Shown here: in pieces, positions 2,382-30,585 of the stretch
Layout: every line of letters starts with the position of its first letter
Numbering within the stretch: position 1 is the stretch's first letter
Assembly (NCBI GenBank): GCA_947596225.1
Contig: CANQEX010000002.1
Span: 1-50,632 of the forward strand
Direction: 5' to 3'
DNA: 50,632 nt
From: an uncultured Clostridia bacterium
GTDB lineage: Bacteria > Bacillota > Clostridia > TANB77 > CAG-508
Made by a program: the position numbers and the translations under genes
The notes under the pieces: model-generated
What the model was told of the DNA's origin: nothing
The model's database searches: none
The model's input: only the letters and a program-made list of their open reading frames with translations

Positions 2382-2384
2382 AAA

Positions 2385-2411: not shown

Positions 2412-2436
2412 CTAAATCTTCCTTTTATTCATAAAA

Positions 2437-5064: not shown

Positions 5065-5883
5065 TTACGCACTCTTTAAATCTAATCTTAATTTATCAGC
5101 AATCATTGCTATAAATTCTGAATTAGTTGGTTTGCCTTTATTTGAGTTTACTGTATACCCAAATATACTTTCAACTGTTTCTATTTGACCTCTATTCCAA
5201 GCAACTTCTATTGCATGTCTAATTGCTCTTTCTACTCTTGATGGAGTAGTTTTATATTTTTTTGCAAGATCTGGATATAATTGTTTTGTTATTTGATTAA
5301 TAACTTCTATATTATTAACTACCATTATAATTCCATCTCTTAAATATTGGTATCCTTTTATATGAGCTGGTACTCCAATCTCATGGATGATATTTGTAAC
5401 TTTTATTTCTAATATTTCTTCTTTACTTGCTTGATTATTGATAACTACATAATTACTCTTTTGTTCTTTTGTATTTATCATTTGTGGTTTTATTTTTGGC
5501 TCTGCTGGATTATTTACTAATTCTCTTATTCGTTTCATTAATACATCCATTTTGAAAGGTTTAAGGATATAATATTGTGCTCCTAAATTTATAGCTTGAG
5601 CAGTAACATTATCTTGTCCTACAGCTGACAACATTACACAAATAGGTAAATTAATATTTGACGAAATTAGTTTTTCTAAGACTCCTAATCCATCTAAATG
5701 TGGCATAATTACATCTAACAATGCAACATCCGGTTTTTCTGTTATTATTTTATTATATGCTTCTTGTCCATCTTTTGCAGTTGCTATTACTTCTACATCT
5801 TCTTGTGTTGAAAAATATGTAATTAATGTAGAAACAAAATCTATATTGTCATCTGCAATAAGTATTTTGATTTTTTCTTTCAA
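5065..5883 (-). CDS. spo0A: sporulation master response regulator Spo0A, 272 aa from a TTG start
   Basis: Receiver domain (KILIADDN...[10 protein letters not shown]) plus the Spo0A-specific C-terminal DNA-binding domain ([20 protein letters not shown]...[18 protein letters not shown]). The track ORF runs to 5976, but AAAGGAGGG sits 6 nt upstream of the in-frame TTG at 5883, which gives the canonical length. Confidence 0.92.
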
Positions 5884-5926
5884 AATATTCCCTCCTTTTT
5901 TTAATGTGTAAATATTTACAAAACGA

Positions 5927-5955
5927 ATTATATTACTTTGAAAAATATTATGCAA
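5927..5955 (-). promoter_or_regulatory. sigma-A type promoter upstream of spo0A
   Basis: Minus strand reads TTGCAT (5955-5950), 17-nt spacer, TATAAT (5932-5927), about 44 nt upstream of the TTG start. Confidence 0.45.
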
Positions 5956-6004
5956 TGATTTTTGTTCAATTTTCAAGACTTTCGCATTTCAACATTCTAC
6001 AATT

Positions 6005-11688: not shown

Positions 11689-13650
11689 TTAACTCCAAAA
11701 TTCGAACATATTTTTTAAAAATACTGTAATATCACTTCTTAAATTTGATAAGAAATTCAATTCTGTAGTAAAGCTTATTGGTATCATTATAAAAATTGTT
11801 GCTAGACATATAACCAAAAATAATTTATTAAACATTTCATTATTATTATCAACTAATTTTAATAACAATATTACTGCACAAATTGATAAAATTAATTTAA
11901 AATCTATGGCATATACTTCAGCAATACCACCAAAAAATGAATTAAGTATTATTGAAATCACACTTGCAATAACACATATTTTTATAAAAACTTTTAATTC
12001 ACTATCTTTTTCATTTTTTAGTATATTGTTTGAAAAAATATAAATCCACATTATTGGTATTGCTATTAAACCAATTAATCTATTTTCATAACACACTTCA
12101 TTTACTGATACTAAACTCGTATTTGTGTTTATAAATACAAATGGAAATTCTAAAGGATTTATCATAGGAATTCTAAAAATATATTCCATTATTCCAGCAT
12201 ATATTTTTCCAAAACTCATTTTCATACAATATATCATGTTAAAACTTGTTAACTGATATTTTGCACCAAATTCTAAAATACTATCAAATCTTAAATAATT
12301 AAATATCATTTGAAAAATAGCAAATATTCCTAAAGGAACTGCAATCCATATACTATCTTTAATTTTTTCTTTTACACTAATATTCTTCATACTTTTTAAA
12401 ACTAAAATAAGTATAATTAAATAATATACAATTAAATTAGGTTTTGATAAAACTATTAGTGCTGTTGATATTCCTAATAGTATCAATTTTACGTATTTAT
12501 ATTTTGGATTATTATAAATAGATAAACTTAAATTTATTGATATAATTAAAAACATTATTCCTGATGATACCACAATATCATATTTTGCACCTCTTAATAG
12601 TGTTAAAATATTGGCACCAAATAATATAGCATAATATCCTAAATAAAAATTTAACAAAGATATATTTTTTACAAACTTGGTTATTAATTTTTTATATAAA
12701 AAATATAAAGAAATTGCAATTCCAAAAATATAAATAAAATTAAATATATATGTATGAAAATACATTCCTGTTATTAATCTAAAAGGTAATAAACTTGTAA
12801 TTATTGGCGCTATTCCAAAATAATTATAATAATGTCCATTATAATAAGCTACATCATATAAATAATTTATATTTTCATCACTTCTTTTAACATTATCATA
12901 AGGATTTTCCATATTTTTTAATTTTTCATCTGGTTCTTCAAGAAGTGGTATACTTCCATTTACAAATGCTTCTGTTTGCATAAGTATAGAATCTTCTTTG
13001 TTAATTTCTTCTGGTTTCACAAGTAGTGTTGGAAAATCAAATTGACATATTGTATATATAGCTACAAAACATAAAAATACTATTAAATTTAAAATAAAAG
13101 TATAATTTTGTACTTTACTATTTTCATCATATTTTACTTTGTACAAATTTTTCTCTTTAATACATAAAATAAAAATTATTATTAAGAATATTATAAATAT
13201 TCTTAATATATTAATTTCAAAATTAATATGATTTAAAATGATATTTTCTATATCTATTTTATTTTCAGTTTCTAAATTAATTTGAATTGTTTTACAATTT
13301 GAATGTGTATCAAAATTGATATATTGACTACTATTTTGTAAAATTACTTTTGGTTTCAGACTTATTAAATCACTATTTTCTTCTGCAGTATATTTTAAAT
13401 TATATGTTATTTTATCTTCTAATTTATTTTTATAATTTATTTTTACACTAGTAACCCTTGTATTTATATCTGAAATTGTTATAGTATTATCTTCAAACTT
13501 AAATTCTTTATATATATCTCTATTACCTATAAATATAGTTCTTAATGCTGGATAATTACAAATAAATATCTCAATCAAAATAGCAATTACTATAGCAGTT
13601 ATTATTCTTCTTATTTTGTTACTATTAAAATTAATTTTTTTTATTTTCAT
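11689..13650 (-). CDS. large polytopic membrane protein, 653 aa, possibly a GT-C type (ArnT/PMT-like) glycosyltransferase
   Basis: More than 12 hydrophobic segments. The loop motif YDVAYYNGHYYNYFGIAP resembles lipid-linked-sugar GT-C transferases. An N-terminal soluble domain of about 130 aa follows the first TM. The function call is tentative. Confidence 0.4.
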   Translation of the reverse strand: MKIKKINFNSNKIRRIITAIVIAILIEIFICNYPALRTIFIGNRDIYKEFKFEDNTITISDINTRVTSVKINYKNKLEDKITYNLKYTAEENSDLISLKPKVILQNSSQYINFDTHSNCKTIQINLETENKIDIENIILNHINFEINILRIFIIFLIIIFILCIKEKNLYKVKYDENSKVQNYTFILNLIVFLCFVAIYTICQFDFPTLLVKPEEINKEDSILMQTEAFVNGSIPLLEEPDEKLKNMENPYDNVKRSDENINYLYDVAYYNGHYYNYFGIAPIITSLLPFRLITGMYFHTYIFNFIYIFGIAISLYFLYKKLITKFVKNISLLNFYLGYYAILFGANILTLLRGAKYDIVVSSGIMFLIISINLSLSIYNNPKYKYVKLILLGISTALIVLSKPNLIVYYLIILILVLKSMKNISVKEKIKDSIWIAVPLGIFAIFQMIFNYLRFDSILEFGAKYQLTSFNMIYCMKMSFGKIYAGIMEYIFRIPMINPLEFPFVFINTNTSLVSVNEVCYENRLIGLIAIPIMWIYIFSNNILKNEKDSELKVFIKICVIASVISIILNSFFGGIAEVYAIDFKLILSICAVILLLKLVDNNNEMFNKLFLVICLATIFIMIPISFTTELNFLSNLRSDITVFLKNMFEFWS

Positions 13651-13738
13651 TTTTTACTTTCCTAATAAATATTTTATTAATAATAACATATAGACCCATT
13701 TTTTACAACTATTCCAAATAGTATTTTTAATATATAAA

Positions 13739-13760
13739 ACGCAGTACAAATGTACTGCGT
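13739..13760 (-). terminator. intrinsic terminator of ppaC
   Basis: GC-containing 9-bp stem ACGCAGTAC / GTACTGCGT with a 4-nt loop. Followed on the minus strand by TTTTAT. Starts 11 nt after the ppaC stop. Confidence 0.65.
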
Positions 13761-13771
13761 TCTAAGTTTAT

Positions 13772-14692
13772 CTATGCATTTTCAGTTATTATTGGAATTA
13801 CTTGTTTTTTACGTGAAACAACACCTGGTAATAATGCTGTATTATTTTCTAATTTAACTTTATATGCTTTTTCAACAATATCTGCTCTTCTTCCTAAAGT
13901 AATTGTTTGAGAATTACTGTTTATTATATCAGTAATTAAAAACATAAATAAATCTAAATTTTTCTCTTTTATTATTTTATTTATTCCTTTTTCTAAATCT
14001 TCTTTCATCTTCATAACTTCTGGTATTGAAGCTGTATTTACTTGTGCTATTATAGAATTTGTTTCTTTAAATTTATATGATTTTGCATCTAAATTTAATA
14101 TCTGCTCTATTGTAAATGAACTTAGATCTGTTCCTGCTTTCAACATTTCTAATCCATATTTTTCATATTCTATTTCTGCAATTTTAGATAATTCTTTAAC
14201 TGCTTTTACATCATCTGGTGTACAAGTAGGTGATTTTAGTAAAAGAGTATCTGATATAATTGCTGACAACATTAAAGTTGCTATTTTTTTATTTATTTCT
14301 AAATTATTTTCTTTATATAATTTATACATAATTGTTTCTGTACAACCAACAGGCTCTGCTCTATAAAATAGTGGGTAAGCTGTATTTAATAATACTTGAT
14401 GATGATCTACTATTTTTTTAATTTTTACATTTGATAAATTTGGAATTAATTCTCCTGGATTTGCAGTATCAACTATAATTACTTCAGCCCCATCTTCTAA
14501 GTCTTCTATTAATTCAGGTTCTTGAACACCTACATAATTTAATACATATTCTGTTTCTTTATTTACCATTCCAAGTCTACAAGATATAACATCTTCATTT
14601 CCCATTTTTCTTTCAAAATCTGCCATTACAATACTTGAAATTATTGAATCTGTGTCTGGATTCTTATGACCAAATATATAAGTTTTTCCCAT
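13772..14692 (-). CDS. ppaC: manganese-dependent inorganic pyrophosphatase (family II, DHH), 306 aa
   Basis: YIFGHKNPDTDSIISSIV, VDTANPGE and VDHHQ motifs give the DHH/DHHA2 layout of family II PPase. Confidence 0.9.
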   Translation of the reverse strand: MGKTYIFGHKNPDTDSIISSIVMADFERKMGNEDVISCRLGMVNKETEYVLNYVGVQEPELIEDLEDGAEVIIVDTANPGELIPNLSNVKIKKIVDHHQVLLNTAYPLFYRAEPVGCTETIMYKLYKENNLEINKKIATLMLSAIISDTLLLKSPTCTPDDVKAVKELSKIAEIEYEKYGLEMLKAGTDLSSFTIEQILNLDAKSYKFKETNSIIAQVNTASIPEVMKMKEDLEKGINKIIKEKNLDLFMFLITDIINSNSQTITLGRRADIVEKAYKVKLENNTALLPGVVSRKKQVIPIITENA

Positions 14693-14756
14693 TTTCTATT
14701 CCCCATTTCTTTATTATTTTTTTATATATTATACTATTTCTAGTTAAAAATCAATA

Positions 14757-16025
14757 TTATCTTTCTTTATTATCTTGTTTGTTAGATGGGATTTTTTTAT
14801 ATGATACATTATCCAAACATGAAGTATCTTTAATAACAAAAATATTATTATTATTATTATTTTCATTACTATCTTTTATTGAACTTTCATCTTTTAATAA
14901 TTTTTTTCTACGAAAAATTGAATTAATAAATTTAAAAAATTTTCCTGTTTCTTTTAAAGAATCTCTAAAAATTACTGATGAATTTAAAACTTGCTCTTTT
15001 TCTTCTTCACTAACTTCATCTATAAACTCTTTACGTTCATAAATATTTTGCCATTCTTTTTCATCATATTGTAAATCTATTTTTCCAAATTTATCTTCTA
15101 ATATTTTTTTATAATTACTAAAATAATCAAAAAAACCTGGATCTAAAAATTGTATATTTTTATCATTCTGTTGTATTCTTACTCTATTTAATCCAAATTT
15201 CTTTAATTCATTTAAAAATCTAATTGCTTCTTCTAATGATTTAACCTCATTTAATCTTTGGTTAAATTCAGCCTCTAGTATTGCATTTTCAATAACAAAA
15301 ATTTTTTCTTTAAGCTTTTCTTCAAATTCTTCTTTTTCACTTGAAGAAAATTTTTCTTTTTTACTCCAATATATTTTTTCTTCTCTACTTAAATCCTGCA
15401 AATTCTCTTTTAAAAAAACATATGTAGAAATACCATATTTTTCTATTAACGCTGGTTTGAAAAAATCTTGTCCTTGTAAAATACTTTTTTCTAAATATTC
15501 ATTTCCAAGAGCTTCATTTATTTGATTTACTAAACAAACTTCTAAAAAATAATCATTTATTTTTTGAGGAAATTTTGCCCACACTTTATTAAAAATATAT
15601 TCTTTTCCAAATGAATCACTTAAAGCCTTAGCTTTTACCAATTCAGTTCCAGCTTCAATAAATACAGGACTCATTTGAAAAAAAGTATTATTTTTTCTTT
15701 CAAAACTTAATTTATGAACCAATTCATGTAAAAGCATTTCCGTCATTCTATTCAAAAAATGAGATATCGCTACATTTCCTGTTTTAGTTTCATAAAAAGC
15801 TTTCATATTTTTTCTAATAACCATTGTAAATATATGACCTCTTTTAGAAAGAATTTCATATATTTCATCTTGAGATATAAATTTATTAAATCGTTTAGAA
15901 AGAATTTTTGCAGCTTCTTTATAATACTTTTGTTCTTCTGTTACAGAATAAATTTTAGAAATATAGCCATTCCCATTTTTTCTATATCTATATGTAATTT
16001 TTTGTATAGTTTCTTCTGTTATCAT
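14757..16025 (-). CDS. hypothetical protein with a single HExxH motif, 422 aa (gene 6 of the orphan operon)
   Basis: ORF with ATG 3 nt after the upstream stop. MLLHELVHKL (H100-E101-x-x-H104, nt 15714-15728) is the only recognisable motif. Charged coiled-coil C-terminal half and an N-run (NENNNNN). Confidence 0.6.
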   Translation of the reverse strand: MITEETIQKITYRYRKNGNGYISKIYSVTEEQKYYKEAAKILSKRFNKFISQDEIYEILSKRGHIFTMVIRKNMKAFYETKTGNVAISHFLNRMTEMLLHELVHKLSFERKNNTFFQMSPVFIEAGTELVKAKALSDSFGKEYIFNKVWAKFPQKINDYFLEVCLVNQINEALGNEYLEKSILQGQDFFKPALIEKYGISTYVFLKENLQDLSREEKIYWSKKEKFSSSEKEEFEEKLKEKIFVIENAILEAEFNQRLNEVKSLEEAIRFLNELKKFGLNRVRIQQNDKNIQFLDPGFFDYFSNYKKILEDKFGKIDLQYDEKEWQNIYERKEFIDEVSEEEKEQVLNSSVIFRDSLKETGKFFKFINSIFRRKKLLKDESSIKDSNENNNNNNIFVIKDTSCLDNVSYKKIPSNKQDNKER

Positions 16026-16028
16026 TAT

Positions 16029-16262
16029 TTATAAAATATCCCTTATTTTTATCTTTTTAAAATACTTTTGAATTTTTTTTAAAGTTCTTTTATCTTCAAT
16101 TATAACAAATTCACCATTTTCTTGTTTGCAAAATATAAAATTATTTTCATTAGCAAATTTATAAATAATTCCAAATGAAAAATTGTATTTATTTATATAA
16201 TAATAAATTTCATTATTATATACTTTTTCAAATATTTTCAAATTATCTTTCCTCGCCCTCAT
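16029..16262 (-). CDS. hypothetical small protein, 77 aa, or 70 aa from TTG at 16241 (gene 5 of the orphan operon)
   Basis: The ORF's ATG at 16262 overlaps the upstream gene by 20 nt and has no SD. The in-frame TTG at 16241 has GAGGAAAG 5 nt upstream and begins 2 nt after the upstream stop. Aromatic-rich, probably a small beta domain. Confidence 0.5.
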   Translation of the reverse strand: MRARKDNLKIFEKVYNNEIYYYINKYNFSFGIIYKFANENNFIFCKQENGEFVIIEDKRTLKKIQKYFKKIKIRDIL

Positions 16263-17529
16263 TTAATTGTTCTGATCTTTGACTAATATTATCTCTGCTT
16301 GCAGCTATTGCAATTTCCTTTTCTTGAATTTTCTCTTTATTTTTCTCTAAAGATGGAGTAACTTTATCTAATACAGATTGAGCAAATTCTGATATCTTAG
16401 ATTTTATTCCTAATGCCATTTGATTTTTTCTTAATGCAAATTTATTTTTAGCAATATCTTTATAATCTTTTATTGTATCTGATTTTGTTTCAATATAATC
16501 TTTTGCATCATTCACTTTATCATTAACATTTTCTTTTATTTTTCCAGCTACTGCTTTAACTCCTTTAGCAGCAGCTTCCACTCCTACCATTCCTATTCCT
16601 GCAATAACCGCAGCACCTTTATATGTTGACTTTCCTATTTGTAAAGCTGTTTTTTTAGTAGTATTTTTTATACCTTGTTTTATATCATCACCAACAATCC
16701 ATGCAGTTTCTACTGTATCAACGACTTTATCTTTAACTGTTCTTTTAATATCATCACCAGCAATCCATGCAGTTTCTGCTGTGTCTACTATTTTTTCTTT
16801 AGCTTTTTTTCCAGTTTCTTTAACAGCAGTTTTAGTTTGCTGTATTCCTTCCTTAACATTTGTTTTCGCCTTGTTTATTCCATCTCTAACATTTATTTTT
16901 GCTTTATTTATTCCATCTTTGACATTTTCTTTTGCATTTTTTATTCCATCTTTTACATTTTCTTTTGTATTTTTTATTCCTTTTATAGTATTATCTTTTA
17001 CATTTTTTACAGTATCAACTACTTGTGTACCTTTTTCAATGGATTTTTCTACTATTTTTGCTGTTTTTGAATCTTTATCCATTGATTCTTCACCTTTTTG
17101 AATTGATTTTTCTTGTAATTCTTTTGCTAAACCTTTTTTTCCAACTAAAACCAAACCTTTTCCAACTAAAGTTGTAACTTTATTTCTTGCAACAGCTATT
17201 CTTGCTCTTATATTAAGTGAATTTTGTCTGATATTAGAAACAACATTTGATTTACTTTGATTTTTTTTAAGATTGTCTTTTGAAAGAAAATCTAAATATT
17301 CATTTGCAATTAATTGTTCTTGTCCTAAATCTTCAAATGATTCATCTATTTCAGCTATTTTATCTTCCATTCCTCTTATAGCCATTTCTTTTGCAATTTT
17401 AGGAATTTGTACTGATAATTTTGCAAATTCTTTTAAATCAGACTTTATTTGTTCTTTAGTTTCGTCTCTCAATTCTTTAAAAGCTTTTGATAATTCATCA
17501 AAATTTGTAATTTCTTGTTTATTATCCAT
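16243..17529 (-). CDS. hypothetical 11-residue-repeat protein, 428 aa (gene 4 of the orphan operon)
   Basis: The track ORF starts at 17571, but AAGGAG precedes the internal ATG at 17529 (MDNKQEITNFDE). Contains seven 11-mer repeats, a duplicated 21-mer and a Gly/Ala-rich hydrophobic segment. No family recognised. Confidence 0.7.
   Translation of the reverse strand: MDNKQEITNFDELSKAFKELRDETKEQIKSDLKEFAKLSVQIPKIAKEMAIRGMEDKIAEIDESFEDLGQEQLIANEYLDFLSKDNLKKNQSKSNVVSNIRQNSLNIRARIAVARNKVTTLVGKGLVLVGKKGLAKELQEKSIQKGEESMDKDSKTAKIVEKSIEKGTQVVDTVKNVKDNTIKGIKNTKENVKDGIKNAKENVKDGINKAKINVRDGINKAKTNVKEGIQQTKTAVKETGKKAKEKIVDTAETAWIAGDDIKRTVKDKVVDTVETAWIVGDDIKQGIKNTTKKTALQIGKSTYKGAAVIAGIGMVGVEAAAKGVKAVAGKIKENVNDKVNDAKDYIETKSDTIKDYKDIAKNKFALRKNQMALGIKSKISEFAQSVLDKVTPSLEKNKEKIQEKEIAIAASRDNISQRSEQLNEGEER
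16777..17007 (-). repeat. intragenic 33-bp tandem repeats (7 units) encoding 11-residue repeats
   Basis: Protein reads VKNVKDNTIKG / IKNTKENVKDG / IKNAKENVKDG / INKAKINVRDG / INKAKTNVKEG / IQQTKTAVKET / GKKAKEKIVDT. The 33-nt periodicity is visible in the DNA, e.g. TTATTCCATCTTTGACATTTTCTTTTGCATTTT. Confidence 0.85.
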
Positions 17530-17542
17530 AATAAATTTCTCC

Positions 17543-17704
17543 TTACTTTTGTGCTTCTTGCAATAAAACATTAATTGAATTTATCACTTTTTCTTTTTCA
17601 TCTTTCACTTTTTTTAATGATTGATTTAATTCATCAATAGAAGAATTATCTAAATTTATTATTTCTCCATTGATAAAAACTTCTCCTAATTTTTCTATTC
17701 TCAT
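17543..17704 (-). CDS. hypothetical small protein, 53 aa, below the ORF-track cutoff (gene 3 of the orphan operon)
   Basis: My translation is MRIEKLGEVFINGEIINLDNSSIDELNQSLKKVKDEKEKVINSINVLLQEAQK. It fills the gap between two operon genes. Its TAA lies inside the SD of the next gene. The nearest SD (GGAAAGGAG) suits an in-frame ATT at 17734 better, so the start is uncertain. Confidence 0.45.
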   Translation of the reverse strand: MRIEKLGEVFINGEIINLDNSSIDELNQSLKKVKDEKEKVINSINVLLQEAQK

Positions 17705-17759
17705 ACTAAAATTTATATTAGTTAATTTACTAATATATCTCCTTTCCTAAAATTAAGTT

Positions 17760-18515
17760 TTATTGTATTGCTAACTTAAATTCTAAATTCACTTGTTCTC
17801 TTACTTCTTCTATTTTCGCTATCAAATCAATTGTTTGCTGTTCTATAATATTAACCATATCACTATTTTTTATTTCAACATTTGATAATTCTTCTTTTAT
17901 TTTTTCAATTACTTCTTTTTCAAATTTTTCTTTTTTAGTAAATTTTTTTAGAAGTTTACTAAAAAAGTTAATAATTGGATTTTGTTTTTTTACAACTTCT
18001 AAATTAGAATTTCTATATTTTACAATTTCGTTAAAATCTTCAATAGAAGCTGTTATACAATCATCTAATTTCTTTTCACATTCAGCAACCATTGCATCAT
18101 AAGCATCATATTTTGTAATTAATGCTGATAATTTTTTCTCATAATTATCTAGTGGTTCCTCTGAATTTTTATTAATAAAAGTGACAAAATTCGCTAAAGC
18201 AATTTTCTGATTTGCTTGTAATTCTTGAATTTCCACTATAATATTATAATATTGTTCTTTTCTTTGATTATAAATTGTTTGAAATTCATTAATATAACCA
18301 GTTACTATTGAATTTTTTTCATTAGTATAATCATCAATTTTTTTACCAAAAGCAATTATTTGATCATCTATATTTTTTTGTATATATGATATTTTTTCTT
18401 CATAACATTCAAATAATAATTTATTAAATTTTGCAAATAGAATATCCATCTCTAAAACTTCTAATTCACTTAAATTTTTAATTTGCTCTAACAACTTATT
18501 ATCTATTTGTTTCAT
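17760..18515 (-). CDS. hypothetical all-helical coiled-coil protein, 251 aa (gene 2 of the orphan operon)
   Basis: ORF with ATG 22 nt after the upstream stop. The sequence is rich in E/K/I/N with heptad-like periodicity. No motif recognised. Confidence 0.65.
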   Translation of the reverse strand: MKQIDNKLLEQIKNLSELEVLEMDILFAKFNKLLFECYEEKISYIQKNIDDQIIAFGKKIDDYTNEKNSIVTGYINEFQTIYNQRKEQYYNIIVEIQELQANQKIALANFVTFINKNSEEPLDNYEKKLSALITKYDAYDAMVAECEKKLDDCITASIEDFNEIVKYRNSNLEVVKKQNPIINFFSKLLKKFTKKEKFEKEVIEKIKEELSNVEIKNSDMVNIIEQQTIDLIAKIEEVREQVNLEFKLAIQ

Positions 18516-18537
18516 TCTTATTCTCCTCTACTAGACA

Positions 18538-18693
18538 TTAGTTCTTGCTATCATTTATATTCAAAAAATGATATTTTTCATTATAATTCATTATACGTTT
18601 ATATATTTTTTGTCTTTTCTCTTGCAGTTTTCTATATAAATTTGTTATTTCCTCATCTGATATTTCAGTATAATTTATTTTCTTTTTTTCCAT
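18538..18693 (-). CDS. hypothetical small basic protein, 51 aa (gene 1 of the orphan operon)
   Basis: The track ORF runs to 18735, but AGGAGAG sits 6 nt upstream of the internal ATG at 18693 (MEKKKINYTEISDEEITNLYRKLQEKRQKIYKRIMNYNEKYHFLNINDSKN). Confidence 0.5.
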   Translation of the reverse strand: MEKKKINYTEISDEEITNLYRKLQEKRQKIYKRIMNYNEKYHFLNINDSKN

Positions 18694-18790
18694 TTTTACT
18701 CTCCTATTAATATAAATCCAATTATATTTTAACATTTTTTTAAAAAATTGTATTATAAGTAATACAAACGATATATAAATTTAATATATG

Positions 18791-18819
18791 TTAACAAATT
18801 ATTTAATATATGTTATAAT
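18791..18819 (+). promoter_or_regulatory. sigma-A promoter for the radical SAM gene
   Basis: TTAACA (18791-18796), 17-nt spacer, TATAAT (18814-18819) with TGT immediately upstream, 16 nt before the ATG region. Confidence 0.45.
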
Positions 18820-18835
18820 TTGCTAGAGGTTAGTT

Positions 18836-19783
18836 ATGGAAAAAGAAAGATATAAACATTTAAATTCATTTTTAAAAGAAAAATTTGGAGAAAGAACTTT
18901 AAAAATTTGTATTGATGGTAATTTTACATGTCCTAATAGAGATGGTACTATTTCTACAAATGGTTGTATTTTCTGTAGCAATGGTGGATCTGGTGAACAT
19001 ATAACAAAATTTTTTAAAGATACCTCTGGAAACTGTTTAGATAAAAATAACTCTATAAAAATACAGATTCAAAATTATTTTAATTCATATAAAGCACAAC
19101 GTGCAAATAAATTTATTGCATACTTTCAAAATTTCTCAAACACTTATGATTCAATAGAAAATTTAAAATCTAAATATGATTCAGCTTTAATAGATAATAG
19201 AATAGTTGCAATAGCAATAGCTACTCGTCCTGATTGTATTAATGAAGAAATATGTAAATTAATATCTTCATACAAAGAAAAATTATATGTATGGGTAGAA
19301 CTTGGACTTCAAACTTCAAATGATGAAACAGGAAAAATTATTAATAGAGGTTATAATTCTGAAACTTTTACCAGAGCTGTAAAATTTTTGAATAGTTATA
19401 ATATAGATGTTATTACACATTTAATGGTTGGACTTCCAAATGAAAATTTTGATGATATAAAAAACACAGTAAACTTTATAAATAATCACAACTTGCAAGG
19501 TTTAAAAATTCATTCTACATATGTAATAAAAAATACTATTTTAGCTGATATGTATAAAAAAGGCGATTACACACCAATTACTCTTGACTATTACATAGAC
19601 TGTGTTTCATATATATTAACACATATTAATCCCAATATTATTATTCATAAAATTTCAGGTGATGCTCCAAAAGATTTACTTATAGCACCTGAATGGAATA
19701 AACATAAAAAATGGATTTTAAATGGTATTGATAAATATTTAAAAGAAAATAATTTATATCAGGGCAAATATTATAATAATTAA
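18836..19783 (+). CDS. TIGR01212-family radical SAM protein (YtqA-like), 315 aa
   Basis: LNSFLKEKFGERTLKICIDGNFTCPNRDGTISTNGCIFCS is the characteristic N-terminus. Its Cys cluster replaces the classical CxxxCxxC spacing. Confidence 0.85.
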   Translation: MEKERYKHLNSFLKEKFGERTLKICIDGNFTCPNRDGTISTNGCIFCSNGGSGEHITKFFKDTSGNCLDKNNSIKIQIQNYFNSYKAQRANKFIAYFQNFSNTYDSIENLKSKYDSALIDNRIVAIAIATRPDCINEEICKLISSYKEKLYVWVELGLQTSNDETGKIINRGYNSETFTRAVKFLNSYNIDVITHLMVGLPNENFDDIKNTVNFINNHNLQGLKIHSTYVIKNTILADMYKKGDYTPITLDYYIDCVSYILTHINPNIIIHKISGDAPKDLLIAPEWNKHKKWILNGIDKYLKENNLYQGKYYNN

Positions 19784-20697: not shown

Positions 20698-21312
20698 CTA
20701 TCTTCCATCTTCATTAGGATAATCTGGTTTTAATAAGCCATCTTTTGATTTTAATAATTGATTTTTTGTTTGCTCATCAAGATTTCTTTCAATAAGATTA
20801 TATAATACATCTATATTTTTATCAAATCTATATCTTTCAAACAAATCAGGATGTACCCTTTTTAAGGTTTTACTTGTCTCAATAAGAATTTGAAATTCTT
20901 GAAAATTTTCATAATGCAATTGTTCTCCATCTCTTTGTTGCTGTTTTAACCATAATCCTATTCCAGCCATTTTTCTTAATGCATGATGTGAATTTTCATC
21001 ATTAACTAAAGCTTCTCCTCTTTTTGCAGAATTATAAGCATCTTCACAAATTTTATAAACAAAATTATTTTCTGAAATTCCACAATTAGCAAAATCTTTT
21101 GAACGTATATTCCACATTTCGTCTAGTGGAATCATATCAATATCATAACCTTCTTGTCTATATTTTCCTCCAAATAAAAACACATTTGTCATTTCAAACG
21201 CATTAGGATCCTTTACTTGCCTATTATTTTTTATCCATTCTGTAATTCCTCTAGATCTATTATTAAAATCTTGTGGCAATATATTATCTTGAAACATTAT
21301 ACTATATTCCAT
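20698..21312 (-). CDS. hypothetical protein, 204 aa
   Basis: ORF with ATG start, 12 nt upstream of the methyltransferase gene. No motif recognised. Confidence 0.6.
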   Translation of the reverse strand: MEYSIMFQDNILPQDFNNRSRGITEWIKNNRQVKDPNAFEMTNVFLFGGKYRQEGYDIDMIPLDEMWNIRSKDFANCGISENNFVYKICEDAYNSAKRGEALVNDENSHHALRKMAGIGLWLKQQQRDGEQLHYENFQEFQILIETSKTLKRVHPDLFERYRFDKNIDVLYNLIERNLDEQTKNQLLKSKDGLLKPDYPNEDGR

Positions 21313-21455: not shown

Positions 21456-21665
21456 ATGGAAGATAATTTAAAATTTACTATAGCTGTAGATAACTTAGAT
21501 AAAAAAATTGCAGAATTAAATATAAAAATTTCAAAAAATCCTAATAATAATGTTATCATTCAAGAACTTAACGGTCTTTTAAATGATAGAGAAAAAATTT
21601 TTAAAGGGAATGCAAAAGATTTAAAAATATTAATTGAAAAATATGCAAGTAAAAAGGATGAATAA
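21456..21665 (+). CDS. putative antitoxin (epsilon-like by position only), 69 aa
   Basis: Small helical acidic ORF with an AAAGGA SD. It ends 1 nt before the zeta-family gene start. No sequence family recognised. Confidence 0.5.
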   Translation: MEDNLKFTIAVDNLDKKIAELNIKISKNPNNNVIIQELNGLLNDREKIFKGNAKDLKILIEKYASKKDE

Positions 21666-21666
21666 T

Positions 21667-22653
21667 ATGAATGATTTAACAACAAAAATAAAACAATTAA
21701 TTGAATCTGAAAAATCAATTAATTCTGATATACAATTTTTGACACCACAACATGCTAATTTAATTAATCAAATTCTTAGTAACTATCATTTAAATACTAG
21801 TTTAGAAGCTTTACCTTCAGCAGAAATGATTTATTTAGGTGCACCAACTGGAGCTGGAAAAGATACTTTGGTCAGAAAAATTATAATTGATAATTCAGAT
21901 AAAAATTATGTTGTTCTAAATATGGATATTTTTAGACATTATCATAATGAAATTTTATTTAGTAATAAACGTATTTCTGATATAGATTTTGCAAAACAAA
22001 CTAATCAAACTTCTTATGAATTATATTATATTATACAAGAAATAATTTTAAGAGAATTTCCTGGTACTAATGTAATTGTTACTGGAACAATGCGAGATAT
22101 AGAATGGGTAAAAGAAATTATAGAACGTTATAAAAAAGATACTAAAACAAATTATAATACAAGATTAGTAACATTAGCAGTTCCTACTAGAGAAAGTTCA
22201 TTTTCTATTTTTGAAAGATATTTAAGTATGGTAGATACAAGAAATGGTAAAAATACTCCATTAAGATATACTGATTTAAAATATCATGATGATACAATTC
22301 AAAAATTTATTTCAAGTGTACATTATTTTGAAGATAATTTACATTCAAATACAGAAAGTTTCTTTGATTCTATTCAAGTATATCGTAGAAATAATGATAT
22401 TTTTGATTTTTCAGAAGATACTTTAGTATATGATAGCAGAACACCTACTCCAAATAAATGTGCATTTACACATATTCATGAAATTATGACTGCACCTTAT
22501 AATATAGATCCTAAAAGAGTTGTTAAACTATTAGAAATTATTAAAAGCAATAGTTCATATTTAAAACAACAAAATCTTTATACTAGTATAATTATAGATT
22601 TAGAAAGTATTCTACCACAATGGCAAGCTCCTTCTACAGATATATCAAAATAA
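21667..22653 (+). CDS. zeta toxin family protein (P-loop kinase, PezT/zeta-like), 328 aa
   Basis: Walker A GAPTGAGKDTL, then VVLNMDIFRHYH (compare the zeta/PezT motif ..D.D.F(R/K)..HP) and VTGTMRD (compare EGTLR). The track ORF starts at 21634. I prefer the ATG at 21667, 9 nt after AAAAAGG; 21658 is an alternative. Confidence 0.75.
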   Translation: MNDLTTKIKQLIESEKSINSDIQFLTPQHANLINQILSNYHLNTSLEALPSAEMIYLGAPTGAGKDTLVRKIIIDNSDKNYVVLNMDIFRHYHNEILFSNKRISDIDFAKQTNQTSYELYYIIQEIILREFPGTNVIVTGTMRDIEWVKEIIERYKKDTKTNYNTRLVTLAVPTRESSFSIFERYLSMVDTRNGKNTPLRYTDLKYHDDTIQKFISSVHYFEDNLHSNTESFFDSIQVYRRNNDIFDFSEDTLVYDSRTPTPNKCAFTHIHEIMTAPYNIDPKRVVKLLEIIKSNSSYLKQQNLYTSIIIDLESILPQWQAPSTDISK

Positions 22654-27305: not shown

Positions 27306-30300
27306 TTAAAAACCTATTCTTTTCTTAGATTCTTCAGCTTTTATAACTGGTATATCTCCTTCTGTAAATGTAAGAAGTCTATCTATATCTGTAATATTTC
27401 TAGTTTTTTTAGCATGTTCAATTATAATTCTTTGAACCATGTTTTCTACAAATCTACCATTACCAAAATTTTCAATTTCTTTAGCATCTTTTAATATTTT
27501 CTCAATTTTTTCTTTAACTTTATTTTCAAATTTAAACCCTTTATCTTTTACTTTTTTCTCAAATATTCGAATTAATTCTTCTGTAGAATAATCTTCAAAA
27601 TCTATTTCATAACCAATTCTTGATTTTAATCCTGGATTTAAATCTCTAAATTTTCTCATTTCATCTGTATATCCAGCAAAAATTATAATTAATCTTCCTT
27701 GATAATCTTCCATTGCTTTTAATAATGTAGCTACACATTCTGCTGAATAACTAGCATTTGTTCCATTATGTTCCATAATGGAATATGCTTCATCAATAAA
27801 TAAAACTCCATCTAAGGCACTTTCTATAACTGCTTGTGTTTTAGGTCCAGTTTGTCCTAAAAATTCACCTATTAAATCTCGTGATTGTACTTCTATCAAT
27901 TTATTTTTTTTCACATATCCCAAATTATAATAAATTTCAGCAAGTAATCTTGCAACAGTAGTTTTTCCTGTTCCAGCATTTCCTTTAAATATCATATGCA
28001 TATTAAAATCTGGCATTCTATCTATTTTTTTATATAATTCAATTACAGAAATAAAACCATCTAAAGTTTCTTTAACTGATTTTAACCCTATTAAAGAATT
28101 TAAATCTTCTAAAATTTCATCAACACCACGTAACTTATCTTTTTTAGTTTCTTGAAAAATTTCTAAATCTTTATTTGTTATTACTTTTAACAATTTATTA
28201 TCTGTACAATTTCCTGCATGAGTTAATACTAATCTATCAAATAAATTTTCTACAAATCTTGCATTTCCAAAATTTCTACCTATTTTATTTTTTATAATTA
28301 TTTTTTCAACTTTTTCCAATACACCATCTTCAAGAGTAAATTCATTTCCTTCTACTTGATCTTTAAAAATTTGAATTAATTCATCTTTTGAAAAATCAGG
28401 AAATTCAAGTTCATAGCCAATTCTAGACATTAAACCTTGATTTGCATTTATAAAATCATTCATTTCTGTTGTATAACCAGCAAAAATAATTATTAATCTA
28501 TCTTTGTATAAATCCATTGCTTTACAAATTGTTGCAATACATTCTTGTGGATAATTAGAATTTAAACCTCCTCTACTTGCCATAATTGAATATGCTTCAT
28601 CAATAAGTAAAACACCATCTAATGCTGATTCTATAACAGCTTGAGTTTTAGGTGCAGTTTCCCCTAAATGTGAACCAATTAAATCTTTACTAGTTACTTC
28701 AATTATTTTATTTTCATTTATAAATCCCAATTTATAATATAATTCAGTAAGAAGTCTTGCAATAGTGGTTTTTCCTGTTCCAGAATTACCTTTAAATATC
28801 ATATTTAAATTTGCAAATCCTTCTGTATCAATTTTTTTACTATAATCTATATATTTTAATATTTCTCTAACATTTTCTTTTATTTCAGTTAAACCAACTA
28901 ATCCATTTAATTCTTTTAAAATTTCATCTACTTCTCTTGTTTCCACTTCTTCTGGTGCATCTGATTTTTCAAAACTATTTGTAATATCTAAAATTTTAAA
29001 TTTATTAAACACTATATCTTTATATACTTTTTCTATATATGAATACTCATCTACAGAATTTTCATTATATGTACTTTTTATGTATTTTTCTAGATTTTCT
29101 GAAAATTCATCATCAATTTTCAATACTCCTTCTAATCTATCTAAAATCTTATTTTTTATTCTTAAATAATCAAATCCTTTTAAATGAATTTTTCTATTTA
29201 TAATTATACTTTCTATATTAGAATGTTTTTGTGTTAAATCTTTAAAAACATCTTCTTCTACAATAAAAATTGACATAGCTCGTCTGTTTTTATTATAGAA
29301 CTTTTCAAATCCTGAAAACATTGCATCAACACGATATTCATTTAAAGACTTTAATTTATTAAAATTTTCAAATATTACAAAATCATTTTCTGTATAAATT
29401 TTATCTACCTGCATTATCATATCTGTAGAATCTTTTGTTCTTTTTACCAACATTTCTGCATCAACCCAAACAGTATTTCTATTACTAAGATAATTAAAAG
29501 TTCTAATATATCTATTTAAAAGATTTACAACTTTATCTGAAATCATACTATTTTTTGTGTATAATGCTATATTAAATTGAATATATGGTAAATCTTCATT
29601 AAAATAATAATTTCTTATATATGTAAGAATAGAAATAATATCTTCTTTTTCTTCTTCTCTACATTCTAAACAATTAACGGAATGAACATATTGTTTATAA
29701 TAAACATCTCTTAAGTCATTATTTTTAAAATTTTTTGCCTTTACTAATTTATTTATTAAAAATTGTTCATCTATACTATTTTTCATACACATATAACGTA
29801 TAAATACTGCAATTTGTATTGGAGATTTATCAAATAAATATGAATCATATTTTTCAAAACTTAAATTTGACAAATCAAATTTAGCTTCTATTCCTTTATT
29901 CTCTTTAAAAAATTCATTTAAATTATTAAAAAATGAATTATTTTTAACATTAAAATCTAAATATCTATAATTTATTATTTTATTTTCTTCTTTTTCTAAA
30001 GTTATACAATCAGATTTTAAAATCATATTAGCACCAATAATATCAAATGGATTAGTTATTAATTTATCCAACTGTTTTATAATATTATTAATTACCAATA
30101 AATTATCCACATATTTATTGCTTTTTTTTCCTAATAATAAATCAAAAACTTCTTTGGAATTAAATTTATTCTCTTGTATACATCTTTGTATATATGCTGT
30201 TAATTTAAAAGGGCAAACATTACTGTCAATATTACAATATGAACATCTCATATTTAAGTCTGTTTCTACATTATTAAGATCTAATTTCCATGTATTTTTA

Positions 30301-30566
30301 TATTCTCTTAAATCATATGTAGTATAAAATAAAAATATTTTCTCTAATAATTCTTCAGAATCTTTAAAATTTTTCGCACATAATTTTAAATAAGATAATT
30401 CTAATATATTTTTATTTTTTTCAACTATTTTATCTCCCTCTTTAATTCTTTCAGTCGTCATATTATAAGATAACAAATTCATAGCATTTATAAAATATGC
30501 CATTCTAATTTCATTTGGTTGAAATTTTTGTTTTATAAAATTAACAAAGTTTTCTGTTTCGTCCAT
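27306..30566 (-). CDS. large AAA+ ATPase with two tandem CbbX/SpoVK-type modules and an uncharacterised 545-aa N-terminal domain, 1086 aa
   Basis: Two Walker A sites (GNSGTGKTT, GNAGTGKTT). Two Walker B/DEAY boxes (VLLIDEAYSI, VLFIDEAYSI). IIFAGY and NFGN(A/G)RFVEN are repeated. The N-terminus carries C108-x2-C-x6-C-x10-C129. Confidence 0.8.
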   Translation of the reverse strand: MDETENFVNFIKQKFQPNEIRMAYFINAMNLLSYNMTTERIKEGDKIVEKNKNILELSYLKLCAKNFKDSEELLEKIFLFYTTYDLREYKNTWKLDLNNVETDLNMRCSYCNIDSNVCPFKLTAYIQRCIQENKFNSKEVFDLLLGKKSNKYVDNLLVINNIIKQLDKLITNPFDIIGANMILKSDCITLEKEENKIINYRYLDFNVKNNSFFNNLNEFFKENKGIEAKFDLSNLSFEKYDSYLFDKSPIQIAVFIRYMCMKNSIDEQFLINKLVKAKNFKNNDLRDVYYKQYVHSVNCLECREEEKEDIISILTYIRNYYFNEDLPYIQFNIALYTKNSMISDKVVNLLNRYIRTFNYLSNRNTVWVDAEMLVKRTKDSTDMIMQVDKIYTENDFVIFENFNKLKSLNEYRVDAMFSGFEKFYNKNRRAMSIFIVEEDVFKDLTQKHSNIESIIINRKIHLKGFDYLRIKNKILDRLEGVLKIDDEFSENLEKYIKSTYNENSVDEYSYIEKVYKDIVFNKFKILDITNSFEKSDAPEEVETREVDEILKELNGLVGLTEIKENVREILKYIDYSKKIDTEGFANLNMIFKGNSGTGKTTIARLLTELYYKLGFINENKIIEVTSKDLIGSHLGETAPKTQAVIESALDGVLLIDEAYSIMASRGGLNSNYPQECIATICKAMDLYKDRLIIIFAGYTTEMNDFINANQGLMSRIGYELEFPDFSKDELIQIFKDQVEGNEFTLEDGVLEKVEKIIIKNKIGRNFGNARFVENLFDRLVLTHAGNCTDNKLLKVITNKDLEIFQETKKDKLRGVDEILEDLNSLIGLKSVKETLDGFISVIELYKKIDRMPDFNMHMIFKGNAGTGKTTVARLLAEIYYNLGYVKKNKLIEVQSRDLIGEFLGQTGPKTQAVIESALDGVLFIDEAYSIMEHNGTNASYSAECVATLLKAMEDYQGRLIIIFAGYTDEMRKFRDLNPGLKSRIGYEIDFEDYSTEELIRIFEKKVKDKGFKFENKVKEKIEKILKDAKEIENFGNGRFVENMVQRIIIEHAKKTRNITDIDRLLTFTEGDIPVIKAEESKKRIGF

Positions 30567-30585
30567 TTTTACCTCTTTTTTTGGA

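Follow-up and report, generated by a model that had tools for sequence, protein, structure and literature searches.

The six-gene block at positions 14757–18693 of the window (the whole 50,632-nt stretch of DNA analysed) is a composite that joins two units of separate ancestry, module A (g1–g4) and module B (g5–g6), neither of which matches a unit of known function. Module B is a putative split HExxH…E metallopeptidase of an unnamed gluzincin-like family. On a tentative reading, which we hold at somewhat less than even strength, the composite operon encodes a cytoplasmic protein assembly at the membrane surface together with an associated protease.

Gene layout and modularity

The block comprises six tightly packed minus-strand ORFs, and their coordinates and spacings, as well as the HELVH motif (15714–15728), are located where a preliminary description of this DNA had placed them:

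18538..18693, minus strand: g1, 51 aa, basic, pI 9.4
17760..18515, minus strand: g2, 251 aa, acidic, all-helical
17543..17704, minus strand: g3, 53 aa, acidic
16243..17529, minus strand: g4, 428 aa, basic
16029..16241, minus strand: g5, 70 aa, TTG start
14757..16025, minus strand: g6, 422 aa, putative zinc metallopeptidase

The gaps are 22 nt (g1–g2), 55 nt (g2–g3, with a Shine-Dalgarno sequence 12 nt past the g2 stop), 13 nt (g3–g4, where the next Shine-Dalgarno sequence contains the g3 stop), 1 nt (g4–g5), and 3 nt (g5–g6). The 51-aa start of g1 is backed by orthologues, and the start of a 65-aa ORF would fall within the conserved −10 element. The start methionine of g4 is the same in orthologues. 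Of the two g4–g5 junctions initially offered, TAA-t-TTG, with g5 starting at 16241, is backed by orthologues with an MKI.E N-terminus and by a GAGG Shine-Dalgarno sequence.

The block is more than a chance arrangement and consists of six conserved coding genes. The suggested conservation of gene order in relatives is borne out, with the identical order recurring across many contigs at 25–64% identity. The dN/dS values of the six genes are 0.06–0.65, indicating purifying selection, and their evolutionary rates are mostly 2–8 times those of the flanking genes; in one pair, g2 has a dN/dS of 0.06, equal to its flanks. As reported, the block is flanked by ordinary housekeeping genes, a radical SAM gene and ppaC (DHH/DHHA2). 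Other genes of the window include a zeta-toxin pair 3 kb away and one that encodes Spo0A.

The products were initially called unrecognisable, and none of the six reaches the curated cut-off of any Pfam, NCBIfam, PHROGs, or PADLOC family. Sequence searches of the PDB and Foldseek comparisons likewise yielded no significant match. None of the six proteins has a signal peptide or transmembrane segment. The window harbors no secretion or T7SS genes, and no other phage gene is found near the block.

The block had been viewed as one indivisible system. Instead, modules A and B are separable because each occurs without the other, and in relatives a terminator-like hairpin lies between g4 and g5. Module A is found in 11 of 185,579 species representatives, all of them low-GC uncultured gut Clostridia, and stands alone in most loci. 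Module B occurs alone in loci L004 and L029, where it follows an amylase gene. The amylase–SDR locus exhibits all three states (A alone, B alone, and A+B). In L013 and in the window, both modules are instead present at the RsmF–ppaC locus; the A-then-B order is thereby retained in two chromosomal contexts, amylase–SDR and RsmF–ppaC. Housekeeping neighbors and syntenic position argue for vertical inheritance.

Module A is served by a conserved promoter region of its own and, in relatives, also by a separate terminator. Module-A-only loci have terminator hairpins 3′ of g4, and a related hairpin is found 5′ of g5 in seven loci but is absent in the window and L014, in which the modules are separated by only 1 and 24 nt, respectively. 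The earlier observation that the block lacks a hairpin terminator holds: none is present in 13500–19500 by a scan requiring at least 3 G-C pairs, in DNA with a local GC content of 23%.

Since each module is found without the other, the link between them could be historical only. The modules may thus be unrelated neighbors, with the operon an accident of terminator loss and the protease substrates elsewhere. The frequent occurrence of module A alone, the loci with B alone, the terminator-like hairpin between the modules in most A+B loci, and the presence of distant g6 relatives in unrelated housekeeping contexts all speak for this reading. It is nonetheless considered unlikely, though well short of negligible, on three counts: within the clade, g5–g6 comes immediately after g4 or its remnant in most loci with known upstream DNA (exceptions L004 and L029), two different sites preserve the A-then-B order, and the modules abut in the window and L014. 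The original proposal that the products act together is favored to some degree by the order retained in two contexts.

Module A and its promoter region

Two conserved elements precede g1, and a third region of interest separates g2 from g3:

18755..18774, minus strand: conserved upstream box (ATATCGTTTGTATTACTTAT), ~20 nt 5′ of the −10 element
18726..18734, minus strand: extended −10 element TGtTAAAAT, sigma-A type, for g1–g4, conserved in position
17705..17748, minus strand: g2–g3 spacer with Shine-Dalgarno sequence (AGGAAAGGAG) and 9-bp A/U hairpin, then the g3 AUG

The upstream box (consensus ATATCtTTTaTGTtACTTtT), a candidate regulator-binding site of module A, also precedes g1 in 11 other loci. 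A position weight matrix derived from these sites scores 22.5 bits at this site, while the runner-up in the 50-kb window scores 14.2. The −10 element probably serves as the g1–g4 promoter, with a predicted g1 5′ UTR of ~26 nt. AATGTTAAAATAtAAT is found at one and the same distance 5′ of g1 in L001, L014, L015, L016, L020, and the window, and the other loci have TGnTAnAAT variants. The layout of Shine-Dalgarno sequence, inverted repeat, and AUG in the g2–g3 spacer is shared by L014; with a fold z-score of only −1.4, the spacer hairpin is a lead rather than a finding.

The promoter bears on a sporulation-specific role, in which coat-like or forespore-membrane proteins would be paired with a maturation protease. 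In favor of such a role, the hosts carry genes for Spo0A and Spo0E-like proteins, and g4 fits the general profile of coat proteins, which typically are specific to a lineage, rich in repeats, quick to evolve, and devoid of signal peptides. However, the conserved module A promoter is an extended −10 sigma-A element in which no consensus for sigma-E, K, F, or G is seen, and the sole spore-family match is Spore_III_AB (E=0.0075) in 1 of 13 orthologues, rendering such a dedicated role improbable. The sigma-A appearance of the promoter also counts against the membrane-assembly reading insofar as the latter extends to sporulation.

The small proteins g1 and g3 directly precede g2 and g4, respectively, both of which are large all-helical proteins. 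g1 consists of a strand-Gly-strand segment followed by a helix; its orthologues (48–68 aa) are always 5′ of g2 and have dN/dS values of 0.21–0.47. g3 has the consensus M..EKlGEiFvDGrIiNLDNsS.E.L...L, also followed by a helix, and is kept 5′ of g4 in every module A locus. An hhalign comparison of the two profiles (E=4.9e-5, probability 68%, 39 columns) suggests that g1 and g3 are probably paralogous ~50-aa proteins.

g2 has homologues in 29 clusters, with 48 invariant columns. Its AlphaFold2 model (pLDDT 84.6, pTM 0.77) shows four helices of 43–57 residues. The sequence harbors an invariant ECExKLxxC motif (18057–18083) and a cationic amphipathic helix, NPIINFFSKLLKKF (17940–17981); the 18-residue window VKKQNPIINFFSKLLKKF (residues 175–192) has a hydrophobic moment of 0.61 and a net charge of +5. 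Foldseek returns no significant match in PDB or BFVD, the PDB matches being generic helical bundles with TM-scores ≤0.34. That the g2 model resembles nothing specific is a point against the membrane-assembly reading.

g4 is organized as follows:

17326–17529, minus strand: N-terminal helical domain, conserved
17113–17181, minus strand: Gly-rich helix KVTTLVGKGLVLVGKKGLAK
16789–17022, minus strand: 11-mer amphipathic repeats
16657–16788, minus strand: 22-mer duplication
16540–16647, minus strand: Gly/Ala hydrophobic hairpin
16327–16434, minus strand: C-terminal helix, conserved

The 11-mer repeats and Gly/Ala hydrophobic segment noted at the outset are confirmed. The BLOSUM autocorrelation of the protein peaks at lags 11 and 22, and the DNA carries tandem arrays of 33 nt (×5.1) and 66 nt (×2). 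Orthologues range from 354 to 835 aa via repeat gain and loss. The amphipathic helices of the block have hydrophobic moments of 0.5–0.6, and the hydrophobicity of the hairpin is borderline, with a peak 19-residue hydropathy of 1.55. The L001 orthologue exceeds the Pfam YtxH gathering score (47 vs 37.5 bits), whereas its LEA_4 and Apolipoprotein matches are sub-threshold; g4 of the window is below every cut-off, including that of Apolipoprotein (4.6e-5). These matches reflect repeat type and not orthology. The repeats, the L001 YtxH score, the amphipathic helices, and the absence of transmembrane segments and signal peptides from the six proteins support the membrane reading. Counting against it are the borderline hairpin and the finding of no significant homology between g1–g4 and any membrane function. 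The membrane-associated assembly first suggested is plausible but unproven.

An undescribed anti-phage or abortive-infection system has also been considered, in which g2 or g1/g3 would be the sensor that releases the g4 hairpin as a membrane-disrupting effector, with the protease as a second effector or activator. Consistent with this are the presence/absence in three states at one locus, the faster evolution of both modules relative to their flanks, the variable g4 length, the nearby zeta-toxin pair, and a weak PADLOC coiled-coil similarity to ZorA tails (best E=2.9e-4). In contrast, the PADLOC models match coiled-coil tails only, dN/dS is well under 1 (and that of g2 equals its flanks in one pair), and the modules are inherited vertically at syntenic housekeeping loci and not in defence islands or mobile elements. 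The cassette is also devoid of the nuclease, NTPase, TIR, or SIR2-type domains usual in known defence systems, and a defensive role is judged quite doubtful.

The module B protease and a proposed mechanism

g5 had been described as a small aromatic-rich domain. Profile comparisons show that it is not an independent protein but the N-terminal domain of the g6-type proteases, encoded here as a detached gene. N-terminal matches to the g5-family HMM are found in P0107, P0088, P0096, P0102, P0104, P0085, P0087, and P0101 (E 1e-15 to 9e-7) and, more weakly, in P0106 (1.4e-4) and P0109 (7e-4), and hhalign aligns g5 with residues 1–100 of P0096 (probability 95%, E=2.9e-8). In at least 8 distant relatives, the domain and the protease are thus one fusion protein, with the domain at the N-terminal end. 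A fused relative sits among guaA and miaB-like genes with module A not nearby. A g5-like gene is also located 5′ of the distant g6 relative P0067.

An exhaustive g6 profile search yielded 76 representative clusters. H100 and H104 of the HELVH motif and E124, within FIEAGTE (15642–15662), are invariant in 53 relatives, and E101 is nearly so. This conservation upholds the metalloprotease previously put forward: g6 is very probably a metallopeptidase, with E124 as the candidate third ligand. A further conserved motif, LVNQ.N...G...LEKSIL.G, is found at 15471–15533, and the helical C-terminal half carries a basic tail. Strands precede the HExxH helix in the AlphaFold2 model, whose confidence (pLDDT 58.6 overall) is low exactly around the active site; the predicted zincin fold is therefore putative. 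SprT-like and M76 Pfam matches are weak and confined to a few distant family members.

In the proposed assembly, g1 and g3 would each be dedicated, as partner or chaperone, to the large protein encoded next, and g2 and g4 would together form a peripheral coat or scaffold lining the cytoplasmic side of a membrane. The coated membrane could include a sporulation membrane, the hosts being Spo0A-encoding. Module B would provide one zinc metallopeptidase as two translationally coupled genes. The A–B terminator is missing in this lineage, so that one transcript could span the six genes. Because the A-then-B order is kept in two genomic contexts, we infer that the protease may process or turn over module A proteins.

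Comparison with known systems

Tail tape-measure proteins are, like g4, long and helical, with internal repeats, Gly-rich hydrophobic segments, and small genes upstream. g4 might thus be a domesticated or decayed protein of this kind, with g1 and g3 as chaperone remnants. PHROGs tape-measure matches (E 1e-6 and 1e-5) occur in 1 of 13 g4 orthologues, and g4 residues 168–249, from the repeat region, have a marginal tblastn match (E=9e-4) to a Latilactobacillus plasmid gene annotated as tape-measure. However, these weak matches are confined to low-complexity helical repeats, g2, g4, and g6 are unmatched in 50,697 phage genomes, and g2 and g6 have no IMG/VR relatives. The block also differs in having no other phage gene nearby and a chromosomal position at housekeeping loci that is vertically inherited and fixed across species. 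This origin is regarded as very improbable.

T7SS LXG effectors and their small Lap partners resemble the block in having genes for small helical proteins immediately 5′ of those for larger helical ones; the block differs in sizes and order and has no toxin domain. As g2 and g4 are long helical proteins, they might form a secreted helical pore-forming toxin or T7SS/LXG-type effector with accessory and immunity proteins, the g4 hydrophobic hairpin being presumably akin to the heads that ClyA- or XaxAB-type toxins insert into membranes. The toxin/effector module entertained earlier is nevertheless highly unlikely, given proteins without signal peptides or transmembrane segments, a window without secretion genes, Pfam/NCBIfam matches in which LXG, WXG, Lap, HBL, and other toxin families are absent, and the generic PDB bundles matched by g2. 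Overall, phage, plasmid, T7SS, and known defence origins find no support, and neither refuter named in advance (tape-measure or tail remnants, LXG/Lap) gave a significant match.

The PspA/IM30/LiaH proteins (ESCRT-III-like membrane-stress proteins of bacteria) are similar to g2 in size, all-helical content, long hairpin-like helices, and an amphipathic helix, and a BFVD phage model of PspA/IM30 ranks second in the g2 Foldseek search (E=0.019, TM-score 0.26). Differences stand against a family assignment: PF04012 is found in 0 of 28 g2 homologues, hhalign with an E. coli PspA sequence gives a probability of 0.7%, and PspA/Vipp1 are absent from the top 50 PDB matches.

g6 resembles the gluzincins (such as thermolysin and M1 aminopeptidases, with HExxH and a downstream Glu): its invariant HExxH falls on a predicted helix that comes after strands, and an invariant Glu is found 20 residues past the second His, on the following helix. 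PDB profile matches of the motif region to M1 aminopeptidase, Spartan, and IrrE are not significant (E 0.18–3.5), and g6 falls short of every Pfam, NCBIfam, or MEROPS-type family. Among the minimal zincins, such as SprT/Spartan, M76, and ImmA/IrrE, SprT has a third His, which g6 lacks, and ImmA/IrrE is paired with an HTH repressor, which g6 is not. g6 differs from known zincins by its ~300-aa helical C-terminal half and the detachable ~70-aa g5 domain, neither of which has a match in any library searched.

The g4 repeats, tandem 11-residue units with a narrow Lys-flanked hydrophobic face, are comparable to those of YtxH-like, LEA group 3, and apolipoprotein A-I type proteins; alpha-synuclein has the same repeat type. 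YtxH has an N-terminal transmembrane anchor that is absent in g4, and g4 belongs with its partners to a fixed four-gene operon, an arrangement not known to be described for these families. In g4, the repeats constitute one insert in a larger conserved framework of N-terminal domain, Gly-rich KGLALFG units, Gly/Ala hairpin, and C-terminal domain.

Coding capacity and distribution of the block

The block is made up of two modules, with g1–g4 forming module A and g5–g6, a split putative zinc protease, forming module B:

18693..18538, minus strand: g1, 51 aa
18515..17760, minus strand: g2, 251 aa
17704..17543, minus strand: g3, 53 aa
17529..16243, minus strand: g4, 428 aa
16241..16029, minus strand: g5, 70 aa, TTG start
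16025..14757, minus strand: g6, 422 aa
15714-15728, minus strand: HELVH motif of g6

The six minus-strand ORFs and their spacings are exactly those of the preliminary description, and the flanks are the ordinary genes reported there (ppaC and a radical SAM gene), followed by an RsmF-type methyltransferase. For g1, g4, and g5, orthologue alignments prefer the shorter start, and the start of the longer g1 ORF would fall within a conserved −10 element. Antisense ORFs around the block are low-complexity by-products of A+T-rich DNA. The genes are found again, at 25–64% protein identity and in the same order, across many metagenomic contigs and MAGs; recurrence of the order is a point that the preliminary description had singled out for checking. 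Their dN/dS values of 0.06–0.65 (0.01–0.12 for flanking genes) indicate purifying selection, which marks the six ORFs as genuine coding genes. Their evolution is mostly 2–8 times faster than that of their neighbours, such that g4 identity is 45% where that of the adjacent amylase is 90%, and g6 identity is 58% where that of the amylase is 91%.

Among 185,579 GTDB species representatives, 11 carry relatives of g2, and each of these is an uncultured Clostridia MAG. The MAGs with g2 relatives come from rabbit, mouse, chicken (‘Candidatus Scatovivens faecipullorum’), sheep, and other gut samples, and GC content is 20–32% in every locus retrieved. The window, from a host of 23.6% GC, encodes a Spo0A orthologue (5065-5976, minus strand; receiver domain plus Spo0A_C, E = 1.3e-46), and Spo0A-like and Spo0E-like proteins are also present in related loci, both of which place the hosts in an endospore-former lineage. 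A phage or plasmid origin found no support in searches in which tblastn found no relatives in 50,697 phage records, IMG/VR held no relatives of g2 or g6, and 72,556 plasmids gave nothing apart from one marginal repeat match.

As the preliminary description had it, the six products are unrecognizable: none exceeds curated thresholds in Pfam, NCBIfam, PHROGs, or PADLOC, where matches are sub-threshold and composition-driven, and none has a name in the source databases. Scanning the full orthologue sets additionally yielded one YtxH pass and one tape-measure match. Sequence-profile searches of the PDB with g2, g3, g4, g5, and g6 gave no match below E = 0.01, and the comparisons proposed at the outset, HMMER/Pfam for all six and AlphaFold/Foldseek for g2 and g6, returned no confident known family. 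Two competing assignments were named there, a T7SS LXG effector with Lap partners and prophage tape-measure or tail remnants; no tape-measure model of Pfam, NCBIfam, or PHROGs is matched by the window g4. The LXG/Lap candidate was rejected because no LXG/WXG100 match was obtained in Pfam or NCBIfam; T7SS core genes, LXG, and WXG100 are also missing among the remaining genes of the window. No signal peptide or clear transmembrane helix is present in any of the six proteins, and a secreted toxin is a very improbable reading of the block.

An undescribed defence system is improbable as well, being weakened by the genomic context, by dN/dS values well under 1, and by a lack of typical effector domains. 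As for known anti-phage systems, PADLOC-DB v2 gave only sub-threshold alignments to the ZorA coiled-coil tail (best E = 2.9e-4).

Across the whole window, nearly all long ORFs share the minus strand and GC skew stays negative, so that the window lies within one replichore with a strong gene-strand bias. No tRNA or Rfam family was found in its 50.6 kb. A zeta-toxin family gene (339 aa, Pfam E = 2.6e-17) is overlapped by a 69-aa ORF just before it, and the two (21456-22653, plus strand) look like an epsilon/zeta-type toxin–antitoxin pair; in the syntenic locus L013, a zeta toxin likewise has a small partner, of 68 aa. Next to an Amidase_3 cell-wall hydrolase is a protein of 1086 aa containing two AAA plus AAA_lid_6 modules, and this pair (27306-31902, minus strand) is kept in the L013 MAG locus (1-3746). 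Four sizeable minus-strand ORFs (11689-13650, 548-1957, 35379-36662, and 20698-21312; 653, 469, 427, and 204 aa, respectively) have no Pfam family at E ≤ 1e-5. The 653-aa product, encoded beside a WG_beta_rep protein and a MatE transporter, has many long hydrophobic stretches and is, by eye, likely a polytopic membrane protein. Two annotations look unexpected in a gut Clostridia genome, namely a tocopherol-cyclase-family protein (48217-49158, minus strand; E = 7.6e-21) and an FrhB/FdhB-like iron-sulfur protein (38635-39702, minus strand), the latter adjoining family 8 and family 4 glycosyltransferases.

Arrangement and regulatory DNA of the two modules

The syntenic locus patatin–amylase–cassette–SDR exists in three states. 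Only g1–g4 are present at the amylase–SDR locus in L007-L012, L015-L020, L022, and L024, while g1–g6 are present there in L001, L021/L026/L027, and L023/L028. In L004 and L029, only g5–g6 are found, immediately 3′ of the amylase gene. The window and L013/L014 carry g1–g6 at another locus, between RsmF and ppaC, and a more distant g6 relative in L030 is also immediately upstream of ppaC. The associated regulatory features are as follows:

Window 18755-18774: conserved box ATATCtTTTaTGTtACTTtT in the module A regulatory region
Window 18726-18734: extended −10 element TGtTAAAAT, ~20 nt beyond the conserved box
Window 17705-17748, minus strand, and L014 8768-8820: g2–g3 spacer with a hairpin between the Shine-Dalgarno sequence and the g3 start
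Just upstream of g5 in L001, L003, L004, L005/L021, L006, L023, and L029: hairpin AAAGCAAAT(G/C)A-loop-T(C/G)ATTTGCTTTT

By-eye comparison of the module A promoter with sporulation sigma-factor, sigma-B, LexA, cre, and TnrA consensus sequences gave no fit, and no second copy of the g1 upstream box, sought to define a regulon, was found across the window. A sporulation-specific structural role for the block is unlikely, being weakened by the sigma-A-type promoter.

In module-A-only loci, an intrinsic-terminator hairpin follows g4. A related hairpin, AAAGCAAATGA-loop-TCATTTGCTTTTT, lies in seven loci just before the g5 ribosome-binding site, whichever gene is upstream. Its sequence is kept though the adjacent proteins are only 40–60% identical, and its inner stem shows compensatory changes. 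This hairpin is probably the module A terminator, although its sequence conservation could also reflect a site for protein binding or a regulated attenuator. It is missing in the window and L014, where the g4–g5 gap is 1 nt and 24 nt, respectively. A scan of 13500-19500 likewise found no terminator-like hairpin inside the block, in agreement with the preliminary description, in a method that needs the G-C pairs that are scarce at 23.6% GC. With the hairpin absent and g4 and g5 abutting, the single six-gene operon first proposed is plausible in the window, but as a derived fusion of two units.

In L009 (10640-11093), L018, and L022, a conserved non-coding stretch of 300–450 nt separates the g4 terminator from the next gene, which in L009 is the SDR gene; the stretch is absent from the window. 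A promoter-like TTTACA...TATAAT lies within it, joined in L009 by a second terminator-like hairpin; the stretch could be a leader or riboswitch-type element.

Module B, a split putative protease

The HELVH motif reported for g6 is present at 15714-15728. An exhaustive profile search recovered 76 representative clusters related to g6. Neither H100 nor H104 varies among 53 relatives at 16–40% identity, and conservation of E101 is at least 90%; H100, E101, and H104 are all invariant in 21 closer relatives. E124, located 20 residues after H104 in a predicted helix (120–126), is also invariant across the 53 and would serve as the third zinc ligand. The closer relatives additionally keep K105, G126, E128, and an LVNQ.N...G...LEKSIL.G motif. 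HExxH with a Glu 20 residues downstream is the gluzincin signature, and g6 is by its motif a putative gluzincin outside every curated peptidase family.

Searches of Pfam and NCBIfam gave no significant peptidase-family match for g6. The AlphaFold2 model is of low confidence (pLDDT 58.6, and <50 over residues 81–140); in it, three strands (65–87) precede the HExxH helix (96–110), and E124 is placed on the next helix. Foldseek found nothing in the PDB at E < 0.79 with this model. PDB profile alignments of the motif region reach M1 aminopeptidase, Spartan, and IrrE at non-significant values (E ≥ 0.18). SprT-like matches were obtained for 2 of the 53 relatives (best E = 3.9e-4) and an M76 match for 1 (E = 0.0076), all of them distant members. 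A SprT/Spartan-like identity (HExxHx5H) was rejected, since no conserved His follows H104 and the window protein has no PF10263 match; the 21 closer relatives share only K105 there. ImmA/IrrE with an Xre-type repressor was rejected in the absence of an M78 match for g6 and an HTH match for g5.

The preliminary description took g5 for a small aromatic-rich domain protein in its own right. The g5-family profile instead matches the N-terminus of at least eight longer g6 relatives (E of 1e-15 to 9e-7) and, more weakly, of two further ones (about 1e-4 to 7e-4); hhalign gives a probability of 95% for g5 against P0096, a relative of g6. Thus, g5 is the detached N-terminal domain of the protease family. 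A distant unfused relative of g6, P0067, again has a g5-like gene just before it. No paralogy of g5 with g1 or g3 was detected. That g5–g6 constitute a split putative protease with a conserved catalytic motif is established at the level of sequence. One fused g5–g6 relative sits between guaA and capA-like plus miaB-like genes with no module A nearby, which indicates that the protease family is older and broader than module A.

Module A and comparison with known systems

Orthologues of g4, collected from the related loci, range from 354 to 835 aa. At the N-terminus is a conserved domain, after which a unit of ~100 aa carrying a Gly-rich KVTS.VGKGLALFGQKGLAK helix is present in one to four copies. 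Next are the 11-mer amphipathic repeats, in a variable block, and a Gly/Ala hydrophobic hairpin (hydropathy 1.55); the C-terminal helix is again conserved, and the tail is acidic. The 11-mer repeat noted initially was borne out in the protein, where autocorrelation peaks at lags 11 and 22, and in the DNA (a 33-nt array of 5.1 copies; 66 nt, two copies); the repeats have a hydrophobic moment of about 0.5. A tape-measure remnant is a very remote reading of g4: one of 13 orthologues matches a tape-measure PHROG, while the window protein matches no such PHROG, Pfam, or NCBIfam model, its neighbours are housekeeping genes, and it has no match in phage genomes.

The g2 family has 48 invariant positions, including ECExKLxxC. 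Its AlphaFold2 model (pLDDT 84.6, pTM 0.77) consists of four helices of 43–57 residues. Residues 171–194 are poorly modelled and contain a cationic amphipathic helix; the segment VKKQNPIINFFSKLLKKF has a hydrophobic moment of 0.61 and a net charge of +5. Foldseek searches of the PDB and BFVD gave generic helical bundles only. PspA/IM30 was rejected as an identity for g2 on the basis of no PF04012 match, an hhalign probability of 0.7%, and a negative PDB structure search; the sole PspA-type match is weak (BFVD, E = 0.019, TM-score 0.26). No paralogy between g2 and g4 was detected.

In both g1 and g3, a strand-Gly-strand segment precedes a helix, and the two profiles match (E = 4.9e-5, probability 68%), such that module A reads small-large, small-large. 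The g3 start lies ~35 nt from its only Shine-Dalgarno sequence with a 9-bp A/U hairpin between them, a layout common to L014 whose fold is not significantly stable (z = −1.4). The hairpin could join the Shine-Dalgarno sequence and AUG into a split ribosome-binding site. An alternative start is the in-frame ATT at 17734.

It is established that the genes are real and restricted to one clade, that they form two modules, that g4 has its repeat architecture, and that inheritance among the housekeeping genes is vertical. The reading tentatively preferred is that g2 and g4 form a coat or scaffold by binding a membrane surface on its cytoplasmic side, that g1 and g3 are their dedicated partners, and that the module B protease acts on module A. 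The evidence for the last step is the A-then-B order kept at two different chromosomal sites; that the two modules have no functional link is rather unlikely, but the likeliest of the rival readings. A bolder form of the coat or scaffold reading, in which module A is an undescribed membrane-coating or remodelling machinery, is doubtful. Here, the hendecad-repeat (synuclein/LEA-like) g4, with a shallow-inserting Gly/Ala hairpin, would work with the four-helix partner g2. The paralogous mini-proteins would escort g2 and g4, one each, and the assembly or turnover of both would be controlled by a dedicated metalloprotease of two subunits, belonging to a new family.

If true, module B would represent a new zinc metallopeptidase family whose N-terminal domain is either fused or encoded by a separate, translationally coupled gene, and g5/g6 a clean natural example of gene fission or fusion. 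An 11-mer repeat protein of the LEA/apolipoprotein/synuclein type would be set in a fixed operon with dedicated partners, offering a genetic handle on the cellular handling of such proteins. The cassette would also be a clade marker for poorly known, very low-GC, uncultured gut Clostridia. Its practical value is limited, as its function is inferred and its hosts are uncultured.

Clade-specific operons without annotation are nothing unusual, and the novelty here is the absence of a family or system assignment as opposed to a demonstrated new mechanism. Nothing known is matched by g1, g2, g3, or g5, and literature searches covering YtxH, 11-residue repeats, and Scatovivens turned up no comparable cassette. 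No known system has this composition, which places the cassette outside every catalogue searched. The window g4 scores below the gathering cut-offs for YtxH (15.8 bits; cut-off 37.5) and Apolipoprotein (23.6; cut-off 90), and only the L001 orthologue passes YtxH (47 bits), covering profile positions 27–70 only. An N-terminal transmembrane anchor is typical of YtxH, and g4 has no hydrophobic N-terminus. In repeat type, g4 is like YtxH, LEA, and apolipoprotein domains, but it differs from them in architecture.
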